64,000 nt of DNA from Marinobacterium zhoushanense (GTDB lineage: Bacteria; Pseudomonadota; Gammaproteobacteria; Pseudomonadales; Balneatricaceae). Location of the stretch: assembly GCF_014641945.1 (NCBI RefSeq), contig NZ_BMIJ01000005.1:222718-286717 (forward strand), given 5' to 3'. The first letter of the stretch is position 1, and each line of letters begins with the position of its first letter. The notes under the pieces were generated by a model. The model saw only the letters and a list, made by a program, of their open reading frames with translations, was not told the origin of the DNA and did no database searches. The translations under genes and the position numbers were made by a program. Of this stretch, positions 16,462 through 43,526 are shown one piece after another.

Positions 16462-16475
16462 TTGATAAACATCAT
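16462..16475. promoter_or_regulatory. Candidate FNR box upstream of ubiU (TTGAT-N4-ATCAT)
   Basis: One mismatch to TTGAT-N4-ATCAA; ~60 nt upstream of the ubiU start. Confidence 0.4.
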
Positions 16476-16534: not shown

Positions 16535-17527
16535 GTGGAACTGGTGTGTCCCGCCGGGAGTTTTCCCGCCCTGAAGGCGGCCGTGGATAACGGTGCCGAC
16601 GCCGTCTACTTCGGCTTTCGCGATAAAACCAACGCGCGTCAGTTTGCCGGTCTCAACTTCGACCGCCGCAAAGCGGAGAAGGGGATCGACTACGCCCGCA
16701 GCCGAGGCGTCAAGGTGCTCTGTGCTATCAACACCTATCCCCAGCCCGAGGGCTGGTCCAGCTGGCAGGCGGCAGTGGATATGGCCGCCGACCTGGGTGT
16801 CGATGCGCTGATCGCTGCCGATATGGGAGTATTGGGCTATGCCGCCGAACGCCATTCCGCGCTGCGTCTGCACTTGTCGGTACAGGGGTCGGCCACCAAT
16901 TACGAGGCGCTGAACTACTACCGTGACCAGTTCGGCATCCAGCGTGCTGTGCTGCCCCGGGTGCTGTCACTGGCGCAGGTGGAACATCTGGCCGCGCACA
17001 CCCCGGTGGAGCTGGAGGTATTCGCCTTCGGCAGCCTTTGTATCATGGTCGAGGGGCGCTGTTATCTATCCTCCTACCTGACCGACGAATCCCCCAACAC
17101 CTGCGGCGCCTGCTCGCCGGCCAAGGCCGTGCGCTGGCAGGAGACCGCGCGCGGGCTGGAGTCACGCCTGAACGAGGTGCTGATTGACCGCTATGCCGAT
17201 GGCGAAAAGGCCGGTTATCCCACCCTGTGCAAGGGGCGTTTCGAGGTGGAGGGCAACGTCTACCACGCCATGGAAGAACCGACCAGCCTCAACACTCTGG
17301 ACCTGATCCCGGAGCTGAAACGGATCGGTATCCAGGCGGTCAAGATCGAGGGTCGGCAGCGCAGCCCCGCCTACGTGTCCCAGGTCACCCGGATCTGGCG
17401 CGAGGCGCTCGACAACGCCGCAACGCAGGGTGCCTTCAAGGTACAACCGCAGTGGGACCGCGGGCTGGAGGCGCTGTCCGAGGGCAGCACCACCACTATC
17501 GGTGCCTATCATCGCAGCTGGCAGTAG
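16535..17527 (+). CDS. ubiU: UbiU, U32-peptidase-family O2-independent ubiquinone hydroxylase subunit
   Basis: 330 aa; near-collinear match to E. coli UbiU/YhbU including the conserved Cys residues (FGSLCIMVEGRCYLSSY…PNTCGACSP…TLCKGR). Confidence 0.85.
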   Translation: MELVCPAGSFPALKAAVDNGADAVYFGFRDKTNARQFAGLNFDRRKAEKGIDYARSRGVKVLCAINTYPQPEGWSSWQAAVDMAADLGVDALIAADMGVLGYAAERHSALRLHLSVQGSATNYEALNYYRDQFGIQRAVLPRVLSLAQVEHLAAHTPVELEVFAFGSLCIMVEGRCYLSSYLTDESPNTCGACSPAKAVRWQETARGLESRLNEVLIDRYADGEKAGYPTLCKGRFEVEGNVYHAMEEPTSLNTLDLIPELKRIGIQAVKIEGRQRSPAYVSQVTRIWREALDNAATQGAFKVQPQWDRGLEALSEGSTTTIGAYHRSWQ

Positions 17528-17535
17528 GGGGATAG

Positions 17536-18432
17536 ATGGACAAGGCATTGAAACTGACCCTGGGGCCGCTGCTCTACTTCTGGCCCAAGCAGGATGTGTA
17601 TAACTTCTACGCCGAGATGGCGGAGCAACCGCTGGATACCGTCTACCTGGGCGAGACGGTTTGTTCCAAGCGGCGTCAGCTCAAGCTCGACGACTGGATC
17701 GAGATCGGCCGTGACCTGCGCGCCTGCGGCAAGCAGGTGGTGCTCTCCAGCCTGGCGCTGCTGGAGGCAGAGTCGGAACTGAAGATGCTGCGCCGCATCT
17801 GCGCCAACGGCGAATTCCAGGTCGAGGCCAACGATATGGCCGCGGTGCAGTTGCTGAGCAGCCAAGGGGTGGAGTTCGTCACCGGCCCGTCGATCAATAT
17901 CTACAACCTGGGTACGCTCAAGCGACTCTACAACAGCGGCATGCGCCGCTGGGTGATGCCGGTGGAGCTGTCGGCGCAGACGCTGGAGCAGCTGCTGCAG
18001 CAGGTCGCGCAGGATGGCTCTCTGCCCGAGTTGGAGACCGAGGTGTTCGCTTACGGCTGCCTGCCGCTGGCCTATGCCGCCCGCTGCTTCACCGCCCGCT
18101 ACCGCAACCTGCCCAAGGACAACTGCAACTTCTGTTGTATCGAGTACCCGGACGGCATCCCGGTGCGCTCGCAGGAGGGGCGCGAGTTGTTCACGATGAA
18201 CGGCATTCAGACCCTGTCCGGGGAGCACTACAATCTGGAGCACGAGCTGGATGCCATGCAGGTCATGGGCGTGGACAGGGTGCGGTTGAGCCCGCAGCGG
18301 CAGCGGATGGCAGCTGTAATCAAGCGTTTCAGTCAGCGCCTGAAGGGTGAACAGAAAGATACCATCCCACTGCTCAGCGCCGGTCAATGCAACGGCTACT
18401 GGTACGGGTTACCGGGCATGGACAGGGTGTAG
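17536..18432 (+). CDS. ubiV: UbiV, U32-peptidase-family partner of UbiU
   Basis: 298 aa U32 protein directly downstream of ubiU; conserved Cys cluster (CSKRRQ…[13 protein letters not shown]…CNFCC). Confidence 0.85.
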
Positions 18433-18546: not shown

Positions 18547-19326
18547 GTGCGCATGACGGTGCGGTGGTCGCTGTTGTATCCCTCGGTAAAGAAGATGCAG
18601 GTACGTGTCATTGGCACGGCTTTTCTGCTGGGTTGCCTGTTTGTCCCCGAGGTGCACAGCGCCCCCCAGGTGGCGGCTGATTCGACAGCGCAGCAGTACC
18701 GGCTTCTGGCCCGTATCGACCGGTTGGAGGCGGAAGAGAAGGGCGATTCGGTGATCGCGTTCCGCTCCGAACTATTGGAGGCGGCATCATCGGATCCGGC
18801 TATCGCGGCGATGCTGGAGGAGACGCGGCATCAATTCGAGACGCGTCGGCAAGCGTTGCAGCAGGTGCAGCAGCAGTTGCGCGACCGGATACAGCAGGCG
18901 GCAGCGGCCATCGACGAGCAGCAGCAACAGCTGAGTAGCAACCGAAATCGGATAGCGCTGATCAGCGACAAGTTAAAAAGTCTGCACGCGGCGATAGAAA
19001 AGGGGCTGATCGGGCAAAACTATGTCGACGCCCTGCGCAGTGAGGTTGAGCAACTGGAAGCGCTCTGCGGTGAAATGGAGGACGGTATCGCGCAGGCCAA
19101 GTGGAGCGTTGCCGAATACCAGCTCGAGCAATCGCGCCTGGAGTTGGACCGGCGCCGAGTGGCGCAGGCCGAATTGGAGGCGCTGACGGCGAAGTTACTG
19201 AAGTCAGCACCGAATCAGATGGCGTCTCCAGACTCCCGAGCAGCGGCTCAGGCAGATGAGACACCAGATTCGAGCGGAAGCTCATCCCTGCAGACGTCGC
19301 AGAGCGTGCAAACCACGCTGGAATAG
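18547..19326 (+). CDS. Secreted coiled-coil protein (hypothetical); likely true start near 18595
   Basis: Signal peptide (…FLLGCLFVPEVHSAP) followed by a Q/E/R/L-rich heptad-like sequence. Confidence 0.45.
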   Translation: MRMTVRWSLLYPSVKKMQVRVIGTAFLLGCLFVPEVHSAPQVAADSTAQQYRLLARIDRLEAEEKGDSVIAFRSELLEAASSDPAIAAMLEETRHQFETRRQALQQVQQQLRDRIQQAAAAIDEQQQQLSSNRNRIALISDKLKSLHAAIEKGLIGQNYVDALRSEVEQLEALCGEMEDGIAQAKWSVAEYQLEQSRLELDRRRVAQAELEALTAKLLKSAPNQMASPDSRAAAQADETPDSSGSSSLQTSQSVQTTLE

Positions 19327-19788
19327 CGGCGGCATCTCGCTCCAGTCCACACTATCCAGAAGATTCTTTACCGCCAGTCCCAGCTCGGTATCGCCCTCGA
19401 TCAGCAGGCGGCGCTGGAAGAACAGAGTGTCCGGATCCTCCTCCAGCGTCGCCAGGCGGAGAAACTCGCCTGAGTCGCCGCGGATCCAGGCATCTGGACT
19501 CTTTTTAGAACCGCTGGCCGGCTCCACCTTTAACTGGCCATCGCGATAGCCAAACGCCAGACGCAGCCCCAGATCCCTAACCTCCAGCCCCAGTTGGCGC
19601 TGCTCCATAAAGTCGAACTCCTCATCCTCCAGCTGCTGCCGGAATAACCGGTTCAATAACCTTTCCAACAGCTGTCGTTTGAGCCGAAACGGGATATGTG
19701 GCTCGGTCCTGCTGAACAGGCTACGCAGATTGGGAGACAGGCTGGGCAACAGGCGAAAGGGAAGCGGGGGGCGGGGGAGAAAGATCAT
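19282..19788 (-). CDS. ubiT: UbiT, SCP2-domain accessory factor for anaerobic ubiquinone biosynthesis
   Basis: Aligns with E. coli UbiT/YhbT (…FRLKRQLLERLLNRLFRQ…DPDTLFFQRRLLIEGDTELGL…). Confidence 0.8.
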   Translation of the reverse strand: MIFLPRPPLPFRLLPSLSPNLRSLFSRTEPHIPFRLKRQLLERLLNRLFRQQLEDEEFDFMEQRQLGLEVRDLGLRLAFGYRDGQLKVEPASGSKKSPDAWIRGDSGEFLRLATLEEDPDTLFFQRRLLIEGDTELGLAVKNLLDSVDWSEMPPLFQRGLHALRRLQG

Positions 19789-19842: not shown

Positions 19843-19856
19843 TTGATGTCAGTCAA
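19843..19856. promoter_or_regulatory. Candidate FNR box upstream of nrdD (TTGAT-N4-GTCAA)
   Basis: Near-consensus FNR half-sites ~100 nt upstream of the nrdD ATG (19955). Confidence 0.4.
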
Positions 19857-19933
19857 GGTGTGGGCGCGGCACTGCTGCCGATAATGATCTATATGTTGTG
19901 GTGTAAGAATTAAATAGGCACTACATGTAGTGA

Positions 19934-21682
19934 TTGGCGGATAGCGAGGCGGCAATGGATAGATACGCGAACGTGGAGGTGAGAAGCACAGTCGACGAGT
20001 ACCTGGAGCGCAGCGACTGGCGGGTCAACGCCAACGCCAACCAGGGCTATTCGCTGGGCGGGCTGATCCTGAATGTGTCTGGTAAGGTGATCGCCAACTA
20101 CTGGCTGAACGAGGTCTACACCCCGTTGATCGGCATGGCGCATCGCGAAGGGGACCTGCATATCCACGATCTGGACATGCTATCCGGATACTGCGCCGGC
20201 TGGTCGCTGCGCACCCTGCTGTTCGAGGGACTCAACGGCATTCCGGGGCGGCTGGAGAGCGGTGCGCCCAAGCATCTATCCAGCGCCGTGGGGCAGATCG
20301 TCAACTTCCTCGGCACGCTGCAGAATGAGTGGGCCGGAGCCCAGGCCTTCAGCTCCTTCGATACCTACCTGGCGCCGTTCATCCGCAAGGACAACCTGGC
20401 CTACGAGCAGGTACTGCAGTGCATGCAGGAGCTGATCTACAACCTCAACGTACCCTCGCGTTGGGGCACCCAGACCCCGTTTACCAACCTGACCTTCGAC
20501 TGGCACTGCCCGGACGATCTGAAGCAGCAGATACCGGTCATTGCCGGCGAGGAGATGCCGTTCAGCTACGGCGAACTGCAGGCCGAGATGGACATGATCA
20601 ACCGCGCCTATCTGGAGGTGATGGACGCGGGTGATGCCAAGGGGCGGGTGTTCACCTTCCCGATCCCGACCTACAACATCACCAAGGATTTTGACTGGGA
20701 CAGCGCCAACGCCGAGCTGCTGTTTCGGCTCACGGCCAAGTACGGACTGCCCTATTTCCAGAACTTCATCTGCTCCGACCTGGAGCCGAACATGGTGCGC
20801 TCCATGTGTTGCCGCCTGCAGTTGGACCTGCGCGAGTTGCTCAAACGCGGCAACGGCCTGTTTGGCTCCGCCGAACAGACCGGCTCCATAGGCGTGGTTA
20901 CGATCAACTGCGCGCGGCTGGGCTACCTTTACAACGGCGACTGGCAGGGGCTTTACGAGCACCTGGACCACCTGCTGATACTGGCCAAGGAGTCACTGGA
21001 ACTGAAACGGCGCCGTATCCAGCAGTTGATGGACGAGGGGTTGTTCCCCTACACCAAGCGCTACCTGGGCACCCTGCGCAATCACTTCTCCACCATCGGC
21101 GTGAACGGCATCAACGAGATGCTGCGCAACTTCAGCGATGACCACATCGATATCTCGTGTGACGAGGGGCAGGCGCAAGCGTTGAGGCTGCTGAACCATA
21201 TCAACGAACGCCTGACCCAGTTCCAGGAGCAGACCGGCCACCTGTACAACCTGGAGGCGACACCGGCGGAGGGCACCACCTACCGTTTCGCCCGCGAGGA
21301 TCGCAAGCGCTGGCCCGATATCCTCCAGGCCGGCACCCGCGAGCACCCCTACTACACCAACTCCAGCCAACTGCCGGTGGGGTATACCGACGATCCCTTC
21401 CTGGCGCTGGAGAAGCAGGATGCGCTGCAGACCCGCTATACCGGCGGCACTGTGCTGCACCTGTACATGCGTGAGCGGATCTCCAGCGTGCGCGCCTGCA
21501 AGCAGATGGTGAAGCAGGCATTGAGCAACTTCGCGCTGCCCTATATCACCATCACCCCGACCTTCTCCATCTGTCCACACCACGGCTACCTGGCCGGGGA
21601 GCATGAATACTGTCCGCGCTGCGACGAAGAGCGACTGCAGCAGAAACTCACACAGAATCAACAAGCACCCGCCTGCACCTGA
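19934..21682 (+). CDS. nrdD: Anaerobic ribonucleoside-triphosphate reductase NrdD, catalytic body lacking the C-terminal glycyl-radical domain
   Basis: Class III RNR core sequence; C-terminal metal-site residues (CPHH…CPRC); ORF stops before any RxxGY glycyl-radical motif; probable start ATG 19955. Confidence 0.85.
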   Translation: MADSEAAMDRYANVEVRSTVDEYLERSDWRVNANANQGYSLGGLILNVSGKVIANYWLNEVYTPLIGMAHREGDLHIHDLDMLSGYCAGWSLRTLLFEGLNGIPGRLESGAPKHLSSAVGQIVNFLGTLQNEWAGAQAFSSFDTYLAPFIRKDNLAYEQVLQCMQELIYNLNVPSRWGTQTPFTNLTFDWHCPDDLKQQIPVIAGEEMPFSYGELQAEMDMINRAYLEVMDAGDAKGRVFTFPIPTYNITKDFDWDSANAELLFRLTAKYGLPYFQNFICSDLEPNMVRSMCCRLQLDLRELLKRGNGLFGSAEQTGSIGVVTINCARLGYLYNGDWQGLYEHLDHLLILAKESLELKRRRIQQLMDEGLFPYTKRYLGTLRNHFSTIGVNGINEMLRNFSDDHIDISCDEGQAQALRLLNHINERLTQFQEQTGHLYNLEATPAEGTTYRFAREDRKRWPDILQAGTREHPYYTNSSQLPVGYTDDPFLALEKQDALQTRYTGGTVLHLYMRERISSVRACKQMVKQALSNFALPYITITPTFSICPHHGYLAGEHEYCPRCDEERLQQKLTQNQQAPACT

Positions 21683-21723
21683 CGGGGCGGCACTAAAACC
21701 AAAGCAAAACCAGGTTAAAGCAA

Positions 21724-21787
21724 GGCCAAACCACACTAGGGCCAAACGAAACTAAGGCCAAACCAAATTAAGGCCAAACCAAATTAA
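21724..21787. repeat. 4 x 16-nt tandem direct repeat (GGCCAAACCAAATTAA-like) in the nrdD / mini-ORF spacer
   Basis: Units at 21724-39, 21740-55, 21756-71, 21772-87; the last two identical; A-rich against a GC-rich background; ends at the SD GGAGAG. Confidence 0.8.
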
Positions 21788-21798
21788 GGAGAGTCATC

Positions 21799-21948
21799 AT
21801 GAACGCAGCCAAACTACTGAAACCGGAAGAGCGTCAGCGTTGCGAAGTCTGGACCCGGGTGATGGGTTACCACCGGCCGGTATCCCAGTTCAACGCCGGC
21901 AAACGCTCGGAACACCGGGAGCGTCGCCACTTCGTCGAGAAAGGCTGA
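21799..21948 (+). CDS. Stand-alone 49-aa glycyl-radical domain of class III RNR (NrdD C-terminal module encoded separately)
   Basis: MNAAKLLKPEERQRCEVWTRVMGYHRPVSQFNAGKRSEHRERRHFVEKG carries the NrdD glycyl-radical signature R-V-x-G-Y…FNxGK…R..HF. Own SD (AAGGAGAG, 7 nt spacing); stop overlaps the nrdG start (ATGA). Not in the supplied ORF track because it is under 60 aa. Confidence 0.7.
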   Translation: MNAAKLLKPEERQRCEVWTRVMGYHRPVSQFNAGKRSEHRERRHFVEKG

Positions 21949-22670
21949 TGGCAATGCGGCTGCGCACACCGAAGGAGCTGCGGGTCAGCGGCATGACACC
22001 GCTGACCACAATTGACTTCCCGGACCACCTGGCCTGCGTACTCTATACCCAGGGCTGTCCGCTGCGCTGCCGCTACTGTCACAACCCCCAGCTGATCCCC
22101 TTTGGCGATCAGCTGGCGTCCCTATCCTGGCTGGAAATTGAAGAGTTCCTGCACAGGCGACAGGGTCTGCTCGAAGCCGTCGTGTTCAGCGGTGGAGAGC
22201 CAACCCTGCAGCCCGCCCTGGCCGCGGCGATGGCCGTGGTCAGGGAGCTGGGTTTCAAGGTCGGGCTGCACACTGCCGGGGTCAGCCCCGAGCGCTTGGC
22301 GCAGCTGCTGCCGCTGGCCGACTGGGTCGGCCTCGATGTCAAAGCCCCATTCCACCGTTATCCACAGGTCACCGGTCGCAACCACCAGGCGCAGCAGAAC
22401 CGCAACAGCCTGGCACTGTTGCTGGCGTCGGATGTCCGCTTCGAATGCCGCACCACCGTGGACTGGCGCCTGTTTACGCCGGACGAACTGCACGACCTGG
22501 CCCGCCAGTTGGCCGAGCTTGGCGTACAACGTTACGCGGTGCAGATCAACCAGGCCCGCAACTGCCTCGATCCCGAGCTGGAGCAGACGGTCACTCTATC
22601 GACCGAACAGCTGAGGGTTCTGAAACAGAAGTTGGCTGCGCTGTTCCCGGTATTTGATTGGCGGGAGTAG
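21948..22670 (+). CDS. nrdG: Anaerobic RNR activating enzyme NrdG (radical SAM)
   Basis: CPLRCRYCHNP radical-SAM motif; ~240 aa from ATG 21948. Confidence 0.85.
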   Translation: MAMRLRTPKELRVSGMTPLTTIDFPDHLACVLYTQGCPLRCRYCHNPQLIPFGDQLASLSWLEIEEFLHRRQGLLEAVVFSGGEPTLQPALAAAMAVVRELGFKVGLHTAGVSPERLAQLLPLADWVGLDVKAPFHRYPQVTGRNHQAQQNRNSLALLLASDVRFECRTTVDWRLFTPDELHDLARQLAELGVQRYAVQINQARNCLDPELEQTVTLSTEQLRVLKQKLAALFPVFDWRE

Positions 22671-22812
22671 GGTCGCGCCCTGCGAACTCATTTGGCTGGC
22701 GTGAGCCACCCCAATATCAATCCTGCTCTCCACTACTGACAGAGTCTGACAGTGGCTCCCTCTAGACTTCGTACCTGTGCATATCGCACGGAACATTCGT
22801 AGAGGAACCACT

Positions 22813-23121
22813 ATGAGCAAGTGTATCGAAACCGTAACTTTTAAACTAAATGCAGGGAGTGACCTGTCCGCTTTTATCGACGCAAACGGGAAAGTGAACG
22901 CCTGGGCGCGCGAGCAGCCGGGATTTTTGACCCGTGACCTGTCCCAACTGGAGGATGATACCTGGCTGGATGTTGTCTACTGGGCCACGATGAGCGACGC
23001 TAAGCGGGCCGGTGAGACCTTTATGAGCGCGCTGGGCGATAGCGCATTCATGTCGATGATCGATCCGGCCTCGGTCAAGATGTCCCACGGCGAACTGCGC
23101 GTCGCCATTCAATCGGAATGA
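22813..23121 (+). CDS. Small ABM/Dabb-like (antibiotic-biosynthesis-monooxygenase fold) protein, hypothetical
   Basis: ~100-aa ORF (ATG 22813) with the alternating pattern typical of the ferredoxin-like ABM fold; weak assignment. Confidence 0.4.
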   Translation: MSKCIETVTFKLNAGSDLSAFIDANGKVNAWAREQPGFLTRDLSQLEDDTWLDVVYWATMSDAKRAGETFMSALGDSAFMSMIDPASVKMSHGELRVAIQSE

Positions 23122-23122
23122 T

Positions 23123-23818
23123 ATGAGTAAAGCGGAGCGTCTGTTCAATCTCTATACCCTGCTGCGTGCCCGGCGGACCGCAATAACGGCAGACGCCATT
23201 GCGTCCGCGCTGGAGGTCAGCGTACGCACCGTGTACCGGGATGTGCAGGCGCTCACGCTGTCCGGCGTACCGATCGAGGGCGAGCCGGGCGTCGGCTATC
23301 TTCTGCGCCCAGGCTATGAGCTGCCGCCGTTGATGTTCAACGCCGAGGAGGTGCTTTCGCTGATGGTGGGTATCCGCATGGTGCGCGCGTTTACCGATCC
23401 CGATCTTGCCAGGGCGGCGCAACAGGCGGAACAGAAGATAACCTCAGTGCTGACGGAGCCGCTCAAGGCGCGTGCCGAAAACCAGCCCTACCGTATACCG
23501 GTGCTTGCCCAGGACGATGCGCTCAGAGAGGTGCATCGCACTCTGCGCGTTGCCTGCGAAGCGCAGCGAAAGGTGCATGCGATCTATGTTGATGAGCAGC
23601 AGAAAAGGACGGAACGGATGTTATGGCCGCTGGGGATAATCGGTTGGACAGGTCGCTGGACCCTGCTTGCCTGGTGTGAAACAAGGCGAGATTATCGCAA
23701 CTTCCGTTTCGACCGCTTTGAGGCACTGACGTGTCTGGACGCGCGATTCACACCTACTCCGGATATCAGCATTCGCCATTTCTTCGAGACGGTGATCGGT
23801 GTTCCCGACAAGGGTTGA
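23123..23818 (+). CDS. YafY-family transcriptional regulator (HTH + WYL domain)
   Basis: N-terminal DeoR-like HTH (…LEVSVRTVYRDVQAL…) and a C-terminal WYL-type domain. Confidence 0.75.
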   Translation: MSKAERLFNLYTLLRARRTAITADAIASALEVSVRTVYRDVQALTLSGVPIEGEPGVGYLLRPGYELPPLMFNAEEVLSLMVGIRMVRAFTDPDLARAAQQAEQKITSVLTEPLKARAENQPYRIPVLAQDDALREVHRTLRVACEAQRKVHAIYVDEQQKRTERMLWPLGIIGWTGRWTLLAWCETRRDYRNFRFDRFEALTCLDARFTPTPDISIRHFFETVIGVPDKG

Positions 23819-42239: not shown

Positions 42240-43526
42240 ATGACCCAGACTACTCAGAAACAGATCTCCGCATTGGTCATGAGCACCCTGGTGTTCGCGG
42301 CCTGCTTTGCGACCTGGACGCTGATCTCGGTTATCGGTCTGCAAATAAAACATGAATTGCAGCTCAGTGAAACCGAGTTTGGTGTACTGGTGGCGACGCC
42401 GATCCTCAGCGGTGCCTTGGCGCGCCTTCCACTGGGTTTGCTGGCCGAGCGGCTGGGCGGTCATGCGTTGCTGGCCGTGCTAGTGCTGCTGGTCAGCGTG
42501 CCGCTCTACCTGTTTTCCCAGGCGCACAGCTACTGGCAGTATCTGGCACTGGGGTTATGCATCGGTCTGGTGGGTGGCAGTTTCGCCATCGGTATCCACT
42601 ATGTTTCCTCCTGGGCCTCGCGCGACAACCAGGGGCTGGCGATGGGGATCTTCGGTGCCGGCAACCTGGGCGCGGCGCTGACCAACCTGATCGCGCCGCT
42701 GATCATCATCGCCTACGGCTGGCGCATGGCCCCAATCGCCTACGCTTTCGTGCTGGTGCTGCTGGCGCTGCTGTTCTGGCTGCTGACCCAGGATGATCCG
42801 ATGCATCAGTCCCGCAGTCGCCGCGCGGAGCCCTCACTGACCGAGATGCTGATGCCGTTACTGGACCCACGGGTGTGGCGCTTCGGTCTGTACTACTTCT
42901 TCGTGTTCGGCGGCTACGTGGCGCTGGCGCTCTGGCTGCCTGACTACTACGTCCACCATTACGGTCTGGACCTGAAAAACGCCTCTTTCCTGACCCTGCT
43001 GTTTACCGTACCCGGCGCCCTGACCCGGGTGATCGGCGGCTGGTGCGCCGACCGCCTTGGTGCGCGGCGGGTCAACTGGAGCGTGTTCTGGGTCTGCCTG
43101 GTCTGTCTTTTCTTCCTCTCCTACCCACCCACCACCATGACCATTCATGGCATCGACGGCGACATCACGTTCCTGCTCGAGATGCCGGTCTGGCTGTTTA
43201 CTGTGCTGATCATGGTGATGGGTGTGGCGATGGGGTTCGGAAAAGCCGGGGTGTTCCGCACCGTCTACGACTACTACCCGGATCGCATGGGTACGGTCGG
43301 CGGCGCTGTGGGGTTGCTCGGTGCGATCGGCGGATTCGTACTGCCGATCAGTTTTGGTCTGGTAACGGACCTGTTCGGCGTACGCAGCTCCTGTTTCATG
43401 CTGCTCTACGGCCTGTTGGCGCTGTGCATGATCACCATGTACTACGGCATCTCGGTCCAGGAGAAGCAGAACCGGTTGCAGGAGGCGATACGCACCAACT
43501 TTTTGAAGGAGAACCTGGATGCCTGA
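42240..43526 (+). CDS. narK: NarK1-type MFS nitrate/nitrite transporter
   Basis: 428 aa, 12 TM MFS with NarK signature. Confidence 0.85.
   Translation: MTQTTQKQISALVMSTLVFAACFATWTLISVIGLQIKHELQLSETEFGVLVATPILSGALARLPLGLLAERLGGHALLAVLVLLVSVPLYLFSQAHSYWQYLALGLCIGLVGGSFAIGIHYVSSWASRDNQGLAMGIFGAGNLGAALTNLIAPLIIIAYGWRMAPIAYAFVLVLLALLFWLLTQDDPMHQSRSRRAEPSLTEMLMPLLDPRVWRFGLYYFFVFGGYVALALWLPDYYVHHYGLDLKNASFLTLLFTVPGALTRVIGGWCADRLGARRVNWSVFWVCLVCLFFLSYPPTTMTIHGIDGDITFLLEMPVWLFTVLIMVMGVAMGFGKAGVFRTVYDYYPDRMGTVGGAVGLLGAIGGFVLPISFGLVTDLFGVRSSCFMLLYGLLALCMITMYYGISVQEKQNRLQEAIRTNFLKENLDA

Follow-up and report, generated by a model that had tools for sequence, protein, structure and literature searches.

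A probable two-piece class III ribonucleotide reductase with its glycyl-radical site on a separate 49-residue protein

Where does the anaerobic ribonucleotide reductase (RNR) of Marinobacterium zhoushanense carry its radical glycine? The question is raised by a 64-kb stretch of its genome (64,000 nt, GC 60%; hereafter the window, meaning the whole stretch of DNA that was analysed). Here nrdD, the gene for the catalytic subunit of a class III RNR, ends without a radical-loop motif and is followed by a spacer with 16-nt tandem repeats, by an open reading frame (ORF) of 49 amino acids (aa) and by the activase gene nrdG. An earlier note on this DNA had read the small ORF as a detached glycyl-radical module working in trans, and had offered recent disruption of nrdD by the repeats as the alternative. 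We conclude that the locus very probably encodes a naturally two-piece class III (anaerobic) RNR, made of a 575-aa body and a separately translated 49-aa radical protein whose gene is coupled to nrdG.

The nrdD body and the small ORF

The nrdD body (19955..21682, + strand) encodes a 575-aa class III RNR catalytic subunit with neither an ATP-cone nor a glycyl-radical domain. It matches NF006126 with 1027.9 bits (cut-off 548) over positions 95-658 of 684, and the Pfam family NRDD (PF13597) with 571.9 bits (cut-off 26.2; E 2e-171) over positions 2-530 of 562; what is missing is therefore the N-terminal ATP-cone and the last ~30 positions, those of the radical glycine. The earlier note had given the gene as 19934-21682 (582 aa). 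Its end stands, but translation most likely starts at ATG 19955 and not at TTG 19934: ATG 19955 has GAGG 6 nt to its 5' side and yields the 575-aa protein held at NCBI for M. zhoushanense (P0001, 100% identical), and TTG 19934 directly abuts a putative NrdR box at 19918-19933.

The ORF ends at 21682, after ...CPHHGYLAGEHEYCPRCDEERLQQKLTQNQQAPACT (...SICPHHGYLAGEHEYCPRCDEERLQQKLTQNQQAPACT). The stop comes 19 residues past a predicted metal site of the form C-x2-H...C-x2-C (C540-P-H-H543 ... C553-P-R-C556, with C540, C553 and C556 invariant in alignment A5), and the body contains no RVxGY motif, as the earlier note had seen. The finger loop R282-S-M-C285-C286-R and the pair Y79-C80 show full or almost full conservation in alignments A1 and A5, and the RSMCCR loop groups the body with the thioredoxin-type NrdD2/NrdDh enzymes (PMC4493059). 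Among the features by which an NrdD is recognized, the profile score, the finger-loop and barrel cysteines and the knuckle are present, and RVxGY on the same chain is absent. Since an RVMGY sits on the separate 49-aa ORF, the enzyme of this locus qualifies as an NrdD only as a two-chain variant. No second nrdD and no second small ORF were found within the window.

The small nrdD gene (21799..21948, + strand) encodes the putative 49-aa glycyl-radical subunit, MNAAKLLKPEERQRCEVWTRVMGYHRPVSQFNAGKRSEHRERRHFVEKG, with the RVMGY motif. It has its own ATG and, 5 nt 5' of ATG 21799, its own Shine-Dalgarno (SD) sequence, AAGGAGAG (21786..21793, + strand, read from the sequence). The product matches NRDD over positions 530-562 of 562 (E 1e-8, 34.7 bits, cut-off 26.2) and covers the C-terminal ~38 positions of NF006126, which bears out the identification of an NrdD radical module behind a strong SD. 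A Pfam scan of the small ORF at E up to 1 gave only NRDD and a chance match to a domain of unknown function (DUF), and no Gly_radical. The radical glycine is predicted to be Gly23 of RVMGY.

An alignment of 24 diverse small proteins has 23 invariant columns (L7, R12, C15, E16, W18-V28, F31, N32, G34, K35, E38, H39, R42 and F45), with W18-T19-R20-V21-M22-G23-Y24-H25-R26-P27-V28 as the invariant run, and both ends are variable. The small ORF is under strong purifying selection. Compared with the sister strain Marinobacterium sp. D7, its core has a proportion of synonymous differences (pS) of 0.25 and of non-synonymous differences (pN) of 0.011; the median ratio of non-synonymous to synonymous substitution rates (dN/dS) is ~0.11 (2,200 usable pairs, with synonymous sites near saturation). 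A possible annotation trap lies close by: a 276-aa TTG-started ORF (21840-22670) extends nrdG 5' and, in another frame, covers most of the small ORF; were TTG 21840 taken for the start of nrdG, the 49-aa gene would go unseen.

The body and the 49-aa ORF complement each other exactly. On the 651 residues of T. maritima NrdD, a full-length enzyme, the alignment of the body spans 108-615 and closes on the CPVCGKAKVDE of that enzyme, and the profile of the small protein aligns to 617-646 (MRIVGYLVPVSAFNKERREIEYPRRQFYDS); the C-terminal gap is thus filled by the mini-ORF, an outcome that the earlier note had named as confirming a split. The radical glycine of the T. maritima enzyme, Gly621 (PMC4493059), falls within the second stretch. 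With the body reaching 615 and the small profile beginning at 617, the cut lies between the metal knuckle and the strand leading into the radical hairpin. The split has a hallmark on each side. After the knuckle, fused relatives read CPxCGxxxEVYSRVVGY; split bodies gain a conserved D-E-E-x-L-A-x-K in the tail (pattern CPxC-D-[EA]-E-x-[LI]-x-x-K), and the small protein gains a conserved lead-in, L-x-D-E-E-R-x-x (Q-P or Q-R), before C-E-V-W. The body tail past the knuckle is 12-54 aa long (median 15), with 19 aa in M. zhoushanense.

A pseudo-fused model (body 1-559 joined to small protein 12-49) has a predicted local distance difference test score (pLDDT) of 92 and a predicted template modelling score (pTM) of 0.92. 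The radical hairpin is modelled with pLDDT 90-95 and the glycine at the tip of the beta-hairpin, and the whole compares with solved NrdD structures at template modelling (TM) scores of 0.74-0.80.

Occurrence of split and fused forms

Among the best 120 body homologues (78-100% identity; gamma- and betaproteobacteria, including Marinobacterium, Amphritea, Pontibacterium, Acidovorax, Thauera and Verminephrobacter), none has R-x-x-G-Y/F in its last 80 residues. They stop soon after CPxC and are 569-593 aa long, or ~672-748 aa where an ATP-cone is present. Querying with the 49-aa protein returned 3,247 homologous clusters at 90% identity. The 120 clusters listed hold proteins of 49-83 aa, from Halomonas and its relatives, Thiobacillus denitrificans, Microbulbifer, Balneatrix, a verrucomicrobial metagenome-assembled genome (MAG) and others, under such database names as 'anaerobic ribonucleoside-triphosphate reductase', 'oxidoreductase' or hypothetical. 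The small ORF also occurs in 162 plasmid records. In RefSeq, Cupriavidus necator H16 pHG1 has a 677-aa 'ribonucleoside triphosphate reductase', a 142-nt gap and a 66-aa 'nrdD' that overlaps nrdG. The two-piece layout holds in thousands of genomes, those of the model organisms C. necator, Ralstonia solanacearum and Bradyrhizobium included. The breadth of the arrangement and its two-gene annotation in RefSeq had escaped the earlier note.

A scan of one genome per species gave 80 loci, and in 79 of them the small ORF lies just 3' of the body. With the window, pHG1 and three Marinobacterium relatives added there are 85 loci, of which 83 have a separate small ORF, one is fused (L069) and one (L026) lacks both a small ORF and an nrdG in its vicinity. 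The layout is found in complete chromosomes and in plasmids, in >80 independent assemblies. The small ORF opens with ATG in 83 of 84 scored loci, and an SD core of at least 4 nt precedes that ATG in 78 of the 84. The gap from the body stop to the small ORF runs from -32 (an overlap) to +302 nt, with a median of 31, and the small ORF is in the frame of the body in 24 of 83 loci, the third expected by chance. Random frame together with conserved initiation signals excludes read-through, frameshifting and bypass as a route by which the two parts could be joined. On the other side, 42 of 75 loci have a small ORF that overlaps nrdG or is separated from it by no more than 10 nt.

From these comparisons, the split is an old, conserved architecture of a large NrdD clade and not a lesion. 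The proposal of an independent polypeptide that acts in trans gains strong comparative support, both from the 83 of 85 loci and from the T. maritima alignment (108-615 and 617-646).

Two loci call for a short description. L026 (4560-5400) comes from a betaproteobacterial MAG; its split-type body ends ...CPKCDEERLAAKRARLAA, with a membrane-protein gene directly 3', and no small ORF or nrdG was found within 3 kb. In L085 (B. japonicum plasmid pS11L-3, 575-5053) a small nrdD and nrdG are annotated between IS3 and IS66 transposases, with no body gene entered upstream of them; such a gene may have been disrupted, or the plasmid gene table may lack it.

How the split form relates to fused forms was addressed with a full HMMER search of 1.8 billion cluster representatives, which gave 4,319 NrdD-like proteins. 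In the best 150 of these (45-78% identical to the body), 63 end just past CxxC with no radical loop, 55 are fused with the radical loop present, and 32 are truncated, frameshifted or have a different knuckle; odd sequences are over-represented in these counts. Many representatives (P0338-P0487) reach 800-1,880 aa and have 2-5 separate matched stretches, suggesting one or more intein insertions in split and fused NrdD alike. Two distant split-type representatives, of 52% and 46% identity, are followed 22 and 8 nt downstream by ORFs of 64 and 50 aa with an RV/ITGY motif (...TYTRVSGYYRNVDAFNDGKRAE... and ...VYTRITGYYRATENFNDAKLAEF...). These two loci, L086 (2501-4535) and L087 (1084-3392), have phage-like surroundings with many small unknown ORFs, Thg1, a DNA methyltransferase and an intein/LAGLIDADG gene, and no recognizable nrdG adjoins them. 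No stand-alone small ORF was found in a phage collection.

The fused protein of L069 (4510-4830; CPHCAAEGRKQPCEIWTRVMGYY) shares up to 83% identity with split members, and a neighbour-joining tree places it among them; its junction is short (CPHCAAEGRKQPCEIW). Another representative, P0481 (CPQCDAAWLGKQPMPRALPDEARTRCEFWTRVMGYHRP), contains what looks like a former body tail and a small-ORF lead-in joined by a linker, which suggests a secondary re-fusion that kept both extensions. If both are natural re-fusions, the C-terminus of the body and the N-terminus of the small protein must lie close together. The neighbour-joining tree does not settle the direction of change between split and fused forms, and a homologue search with the fused junction of L069 returned mostly fragments at contig ends, giving no usable frequency of fused forms.

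Spacer repeats and rival explanations

Between the two parts lies a non-coding spacer of 116 nt (21683..21798, + strand), which is A/C-rich, with 47% GC against 60% in the window and 44% A. No start codon, promoter or terminator was found on the + strand of the spacer, nor any Rfam match (structured RNA or riboswitch), and its folding is no better than that of shuffled sequences (z-score +0.65); it is unstructured. Within it lie 4.2 tandem copies of the 16-nt unit AAGGCCAAACCAAAYT (21722..21789, + strand; Tandem Repeats Finder, 88% matches), a copy number that comes from one assembly. No other strong tandem repeat is present in the 64 kb, and outside the array the window has no copy of the motif, against a chance expectation of 0.18 matches. 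The earlier note had thus correctly described the spacer, the contiguous repeats and their oddity, as A-rich units, in GC-rich DNA. The other tandem repeat in the window, at 42662-42702, consists of two copies of a 21-nt GC-rich unit.

Every copy opens with AAGG, as does the SD. Three copies contain TAAGG, complementary to the anti-SD, with no start codon after any of them, and we may speculate that they might serve the small gene as ribosome standby sites. In Marinobacterium sp. D7, whose NrdD is 97% identical, the spacer is 44 nt long (tcgggcgtgggcaaccaaaccaagcaaaaccAAGGAGAGtcatcATG) and free of repeats, with the SD and start context of the small ORF as in M. zhoushanense; repeats are likewise absent from M. 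weihaiense (27-nt spacer) and M. arenosum (32-nt spacer). Given this absence, the repeats look like a recent expansion, within M. zhoushanense, of a leader that was already A/C-rich, and because each unit begins with the AAGG of the SD, slipped-strand duplication between AAGG microhomologies 16 nt apart fits their origin. They did not cause the split, and at most they could modulate translation of the small gene. The suggestion of an insertion or excision scar finds no support; a search of related genomes, which the earlier note had put forward as a check, brought out the split (83 of 85 loci), and the 16-nt repeats are absent from all three other Marinobacterium.

That the locus is a fused nrdD recently broken by the repeats or by some other lesion, with a decaying pseudogene as the result, would account for repeats that sit exactly between both parts and are unique in the window, and fused relatives do exist (L069 and 55 of the best 150 representatives). 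Yet sister species with spacers of 27-44 nt are split without any repeats, as are 83 of 85 loci in all; the small ORF retains ATG and SD and is strongly constrained; and the body scores far above its family cut-off. These comparisons refute such a disruption, which was the one alternative that the earlier note had kept. Neither do the data leave much room for a single-chain NrdD produced after all by recoding (read-through, frameshifting or a bypass like that of T4 gene 60) or by a split intein. T4-type phages have odd arrangements in nrdD, a group I intron for example, and inteins seem common in this NrdD group (many representatives of 800-1,800 aa with several matched stretches), which speaks for such a route. 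But the frame relation is random (24 of 83 in frame) over gaps that range from an overlap to +302 nt, the small ORF brings an ATG (83 of 84) and mostly an SD (78 of 84) of its own, the spacer lacks an Rfam match and excess structure, and the body tail (12-54 aa, median 15) is too short for half of a split intein. Recoding is, in our estimate, quite as improbable as disruption. An assembly or sequencing artefact in the M. zhoushanense genome is the least probable of the three: tandem repeats are error-prone in assemblies and 4.2 copies could be mis-assembled, but the two-gene layout recurs in >80 independent assemblies.

Several points nevertheless weigh against the two-piece reading. Assembly of the two polypeptides in trans, and Gly23 as the radical site, are what we infer from the sequences. 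The structural model was built on a fused construct and fused homologues guide its alignment, so that it speaks for compatibility only and not for docking in trans. When AlphaFold was run on the natural concatenation, with both tails kept and a shallow alignment (A3), the result was poor (pLDDT 60); a larger alignment, A4, was set aside because it put the radical domains of fused homologues wrongly, inside an insertion. The body of L026 has no small ORF nearby. Support for function in vivo is taken from C. necator H16, which shares the two-gene layout and in which, according to a passage of PMC2864759 that cites earlier work, NrdDG is essential for denitrification; this genetic evidence is second-hand. 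As for novelty, a prior mention may exist in the subscription literature or in RNRdb curation.

The remaining idea is an extension of the two-piece explanation and not a competitor to it: the small protein may be a replaceable radical cartridge, in which case oxygen would destroy only a peptide of ~50 aa and the body would be re-armed with a fresh activated one. The carriers include Cupriavidus, Ralstonia, Bradyrhizobium, Halomonas, Thiobacillus denitrificans, Thauera and Acidovorax, genera known for facultative anaerobic or denitrifying growth. The small gene's own strong SD would allow expression exceeding that of the body, the gene is tightly coupled to that of the activase, and in the window the operon adjoins the O2-independent ubiTUV genes. 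An analogy is offered by pyruvate formate-lyase (PFL), whose spare part GrcA/YfiD restores the oxygen-cleaved enzyme (PMC13450708). Set against this, the split could be selectively neutral, an arrangement that became fixed once and was then passed on horizontally, and the occasional re-fusions (L069, P0481) imply that separation is not strictly required. We hold the idea tentatively, at somewhat less than an even chance.

The putative operon and comparison with known systems

The third gene, nrdG (21948..22670, + strand), encodes a 240-aa radical-S-adenosylmethionine (SAM) activase that matches TIGR02495 (NrdG2) with 201.5 bits (cut-off 131.15); the radical-SAM motif C37-x3-C41-x2-C44 was read from the translation. 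The TGA of the small ORF shares 1 nt with the nrdG ATG (TGATG, 21946-21950), so that an overlap had been noticed rightly in the earlier note, though not its form, given there as ATGA. The three genes nrdD, small nrdD and nrdG probably constitute one operon.

Between nrdD and the divergent ubiT lies an FNR/ANR-like box, TTGATGTCAGTCAA (19843..19856, + strand), with one mismatch to TTGAT-N4-ATCAA; the window contains eight FNR-like sites against 0.9 expected by chance. Nearer to nrdD are probable tandem NrdR boxes (19886..19933, + strand) with centres 32 bp apart: a weak one, GATCTATATGTTGTGG (19886-19901, + strand), read directly from the sequence, and a strong palindromic one, GCACTACATGTAGTGA (19918-19933, + strand), with 2 mismatches to the NrdR consensus. 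One NrdR match at the stringency used is not above chance in the window, and the strong box is credible for its position directly 5' of nrdD. On the 5' side of nrdD are the genes of O2-independent ubiquinone synthesis, ubiU (16535-17527), ubiV (17536-18432) and the divergent ubiT (19282-19788, minus strand), with a second FNR-like box (16462-16475) on the side of the ubi genes. Together, ubiTUV and nrdD-small-nrdG make up a compact 'anaerobic' neighbourhood, and this setting and the FNR-like and NrdR boxes support expression under anoxia. On the 3' side of nrdG (22777-23818) there follow a 114-aa ORF without a family match and a 231-aa helix-turn-helix (HTH) protein; the sister-strain counterparts of these two genes have HTH_11 and WYL domains.

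The small protein is most likely an obligate radical-bearing subunit that is activated by NrdG and docks into the body. In the mechanism that we propose, the FNR-like and NrdR boxes would induce the three-gene operon under anoxia. The body would supply the alpha/beta barrel, the thiyl-radical finger loop (RSMCCR) and the C-terminal metal knuckle, and the 49-aa protein, made from its own SD and ATG in translational coupling with nrdG, would supply a beta-hairpin with the radical glycine (RVMG23Y). NrdG with S-adenosylmethionine would abstract a hydrogen from Gly23 while the small subunit is either free or already bound. The small protein would dock in the body beside the metal knuckle and the conserved DEExLAxK tail, placing its hairpin in the barrel opposite the finger-loop cysteine, like the covalent domain of the T4, T. 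maritima and P. copri enzymes. The radical would then shuttle to the cysteine in each turnover, and from there the enzyme would work like any thioredoxin-type (RSMCCR) NrdD. Several known properties of glycyl-radical enzymes bear on this scheme. Their C-terminal domain can reach the activase only by moving out of the barrel, oxygen cuts the polypeptide at its radical glycine, and the PFL activase accepts a 7-mer peptide as substrate (PMC13450708; PMC4493059); the radical domain of P. copri NrdD is mobile (PMC11226230).

To our knowledge, glycyl-radical enzymes have been described as single chains whose C-terminal domain flips out and in, with GrcA as the only known exception. In the full-text literature we found no description of a split or two-subunit NrdD, only split NrdJ and phage genes interrupted by introns or inteins. 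Two large phylogenetic surveys of RNR C-termini mention a split for class II only, and the C. metallidurans genome paper gives NrdDG as Rmet_5137 and Rmet_5139, skipping 5138. According to a 2026 review, formate lyases are the only enzymes with known spare-part proteins, and for other glycyl-radical enzymes it has yet to be determined whether any exist (PMC13450708). Both genes are already annotated in RefSeq, and the very large and conserved two-piece variant, to which this locus belongs as an ordinary member, is apparently undescribed in the literature.

Possibly, though we would not yet favour it, a large clade consists of obligate two-component glycyl-radical enzymes in which NrdG charges a free peptide of ~50 residues as a consumable cartridge. 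Were this so, these would be the first glycyl-radical enzymes to keep the radical site off the catalytic chain throughout, and theirs the first protein of the spare-part type outside pyruvate formate-lyase. The small proteins (49-66 aa) offer a natural minimal substrate for studying how an activase recognizes and charges its target and how a radical loop docks, and they allow one to ask whether separation aids recovery from oxygen at oxic-anoxic interfaces. For RNR surveys there is a practical side: filters on length or motif would throw out the bodies as truncated, and the mini-gene readily escapes notice.

The closest known systems are the single-chain NrdD/NrdG pairs of E. coli, phage T4, T. 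maritima, N. bacilliformis and P. copri. They share with the present locus the family (NF006126/PF13597) and barrel fold, the finger-loop cysteines, the metal site, the RVxGY loop and an adjoining radical-SAM activase; RSMCCR is as in the thioredoxin-type enzymes of N. bacilliformis and T. maritima (PMC4493059). In every characterized enzyme, however, the radical loop is the covalent C-terminus, 3-6 residues past CxxC, and it is there that the chain is cut in M. zhoushanense.

GrcA/YfiD, which replaces the cleaved PFL domain in trans (PMC13450708), and T4 Y06I resemble what we propose for the 49-aa protein, each being a small stand-alone radical-glycine protein that is charged by the activase of its parent and complements the body in trans. 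GrcA, though, backs up a PFL with a domain of its own, whereas the 49-aa protein is the only source of the radical loop at this locus; GrcA is homologous to the PFL domain (Pfam Gly_radical), whereas the 49-aa protein matches NRDD only. Split class II NrdJa/NrdJb (Pseudomonas aeruginosa and a Thermus phage) likewise draws an RNR catalytic chain from two consecutive ORFs, but it belongs to another class, and its detached module is a C-terminal IscU-like/zinc-finger domain that shuttles reductant. Finally, in phages nrdD may be present as more than one ORF through interruption by introns, inteins or endonucleases (PMC3653736). Those interruptions are spliced out at the RNA or protein level or are lesions; the locus described here has neither intron nor intein, and both of its parts are self-initiated.

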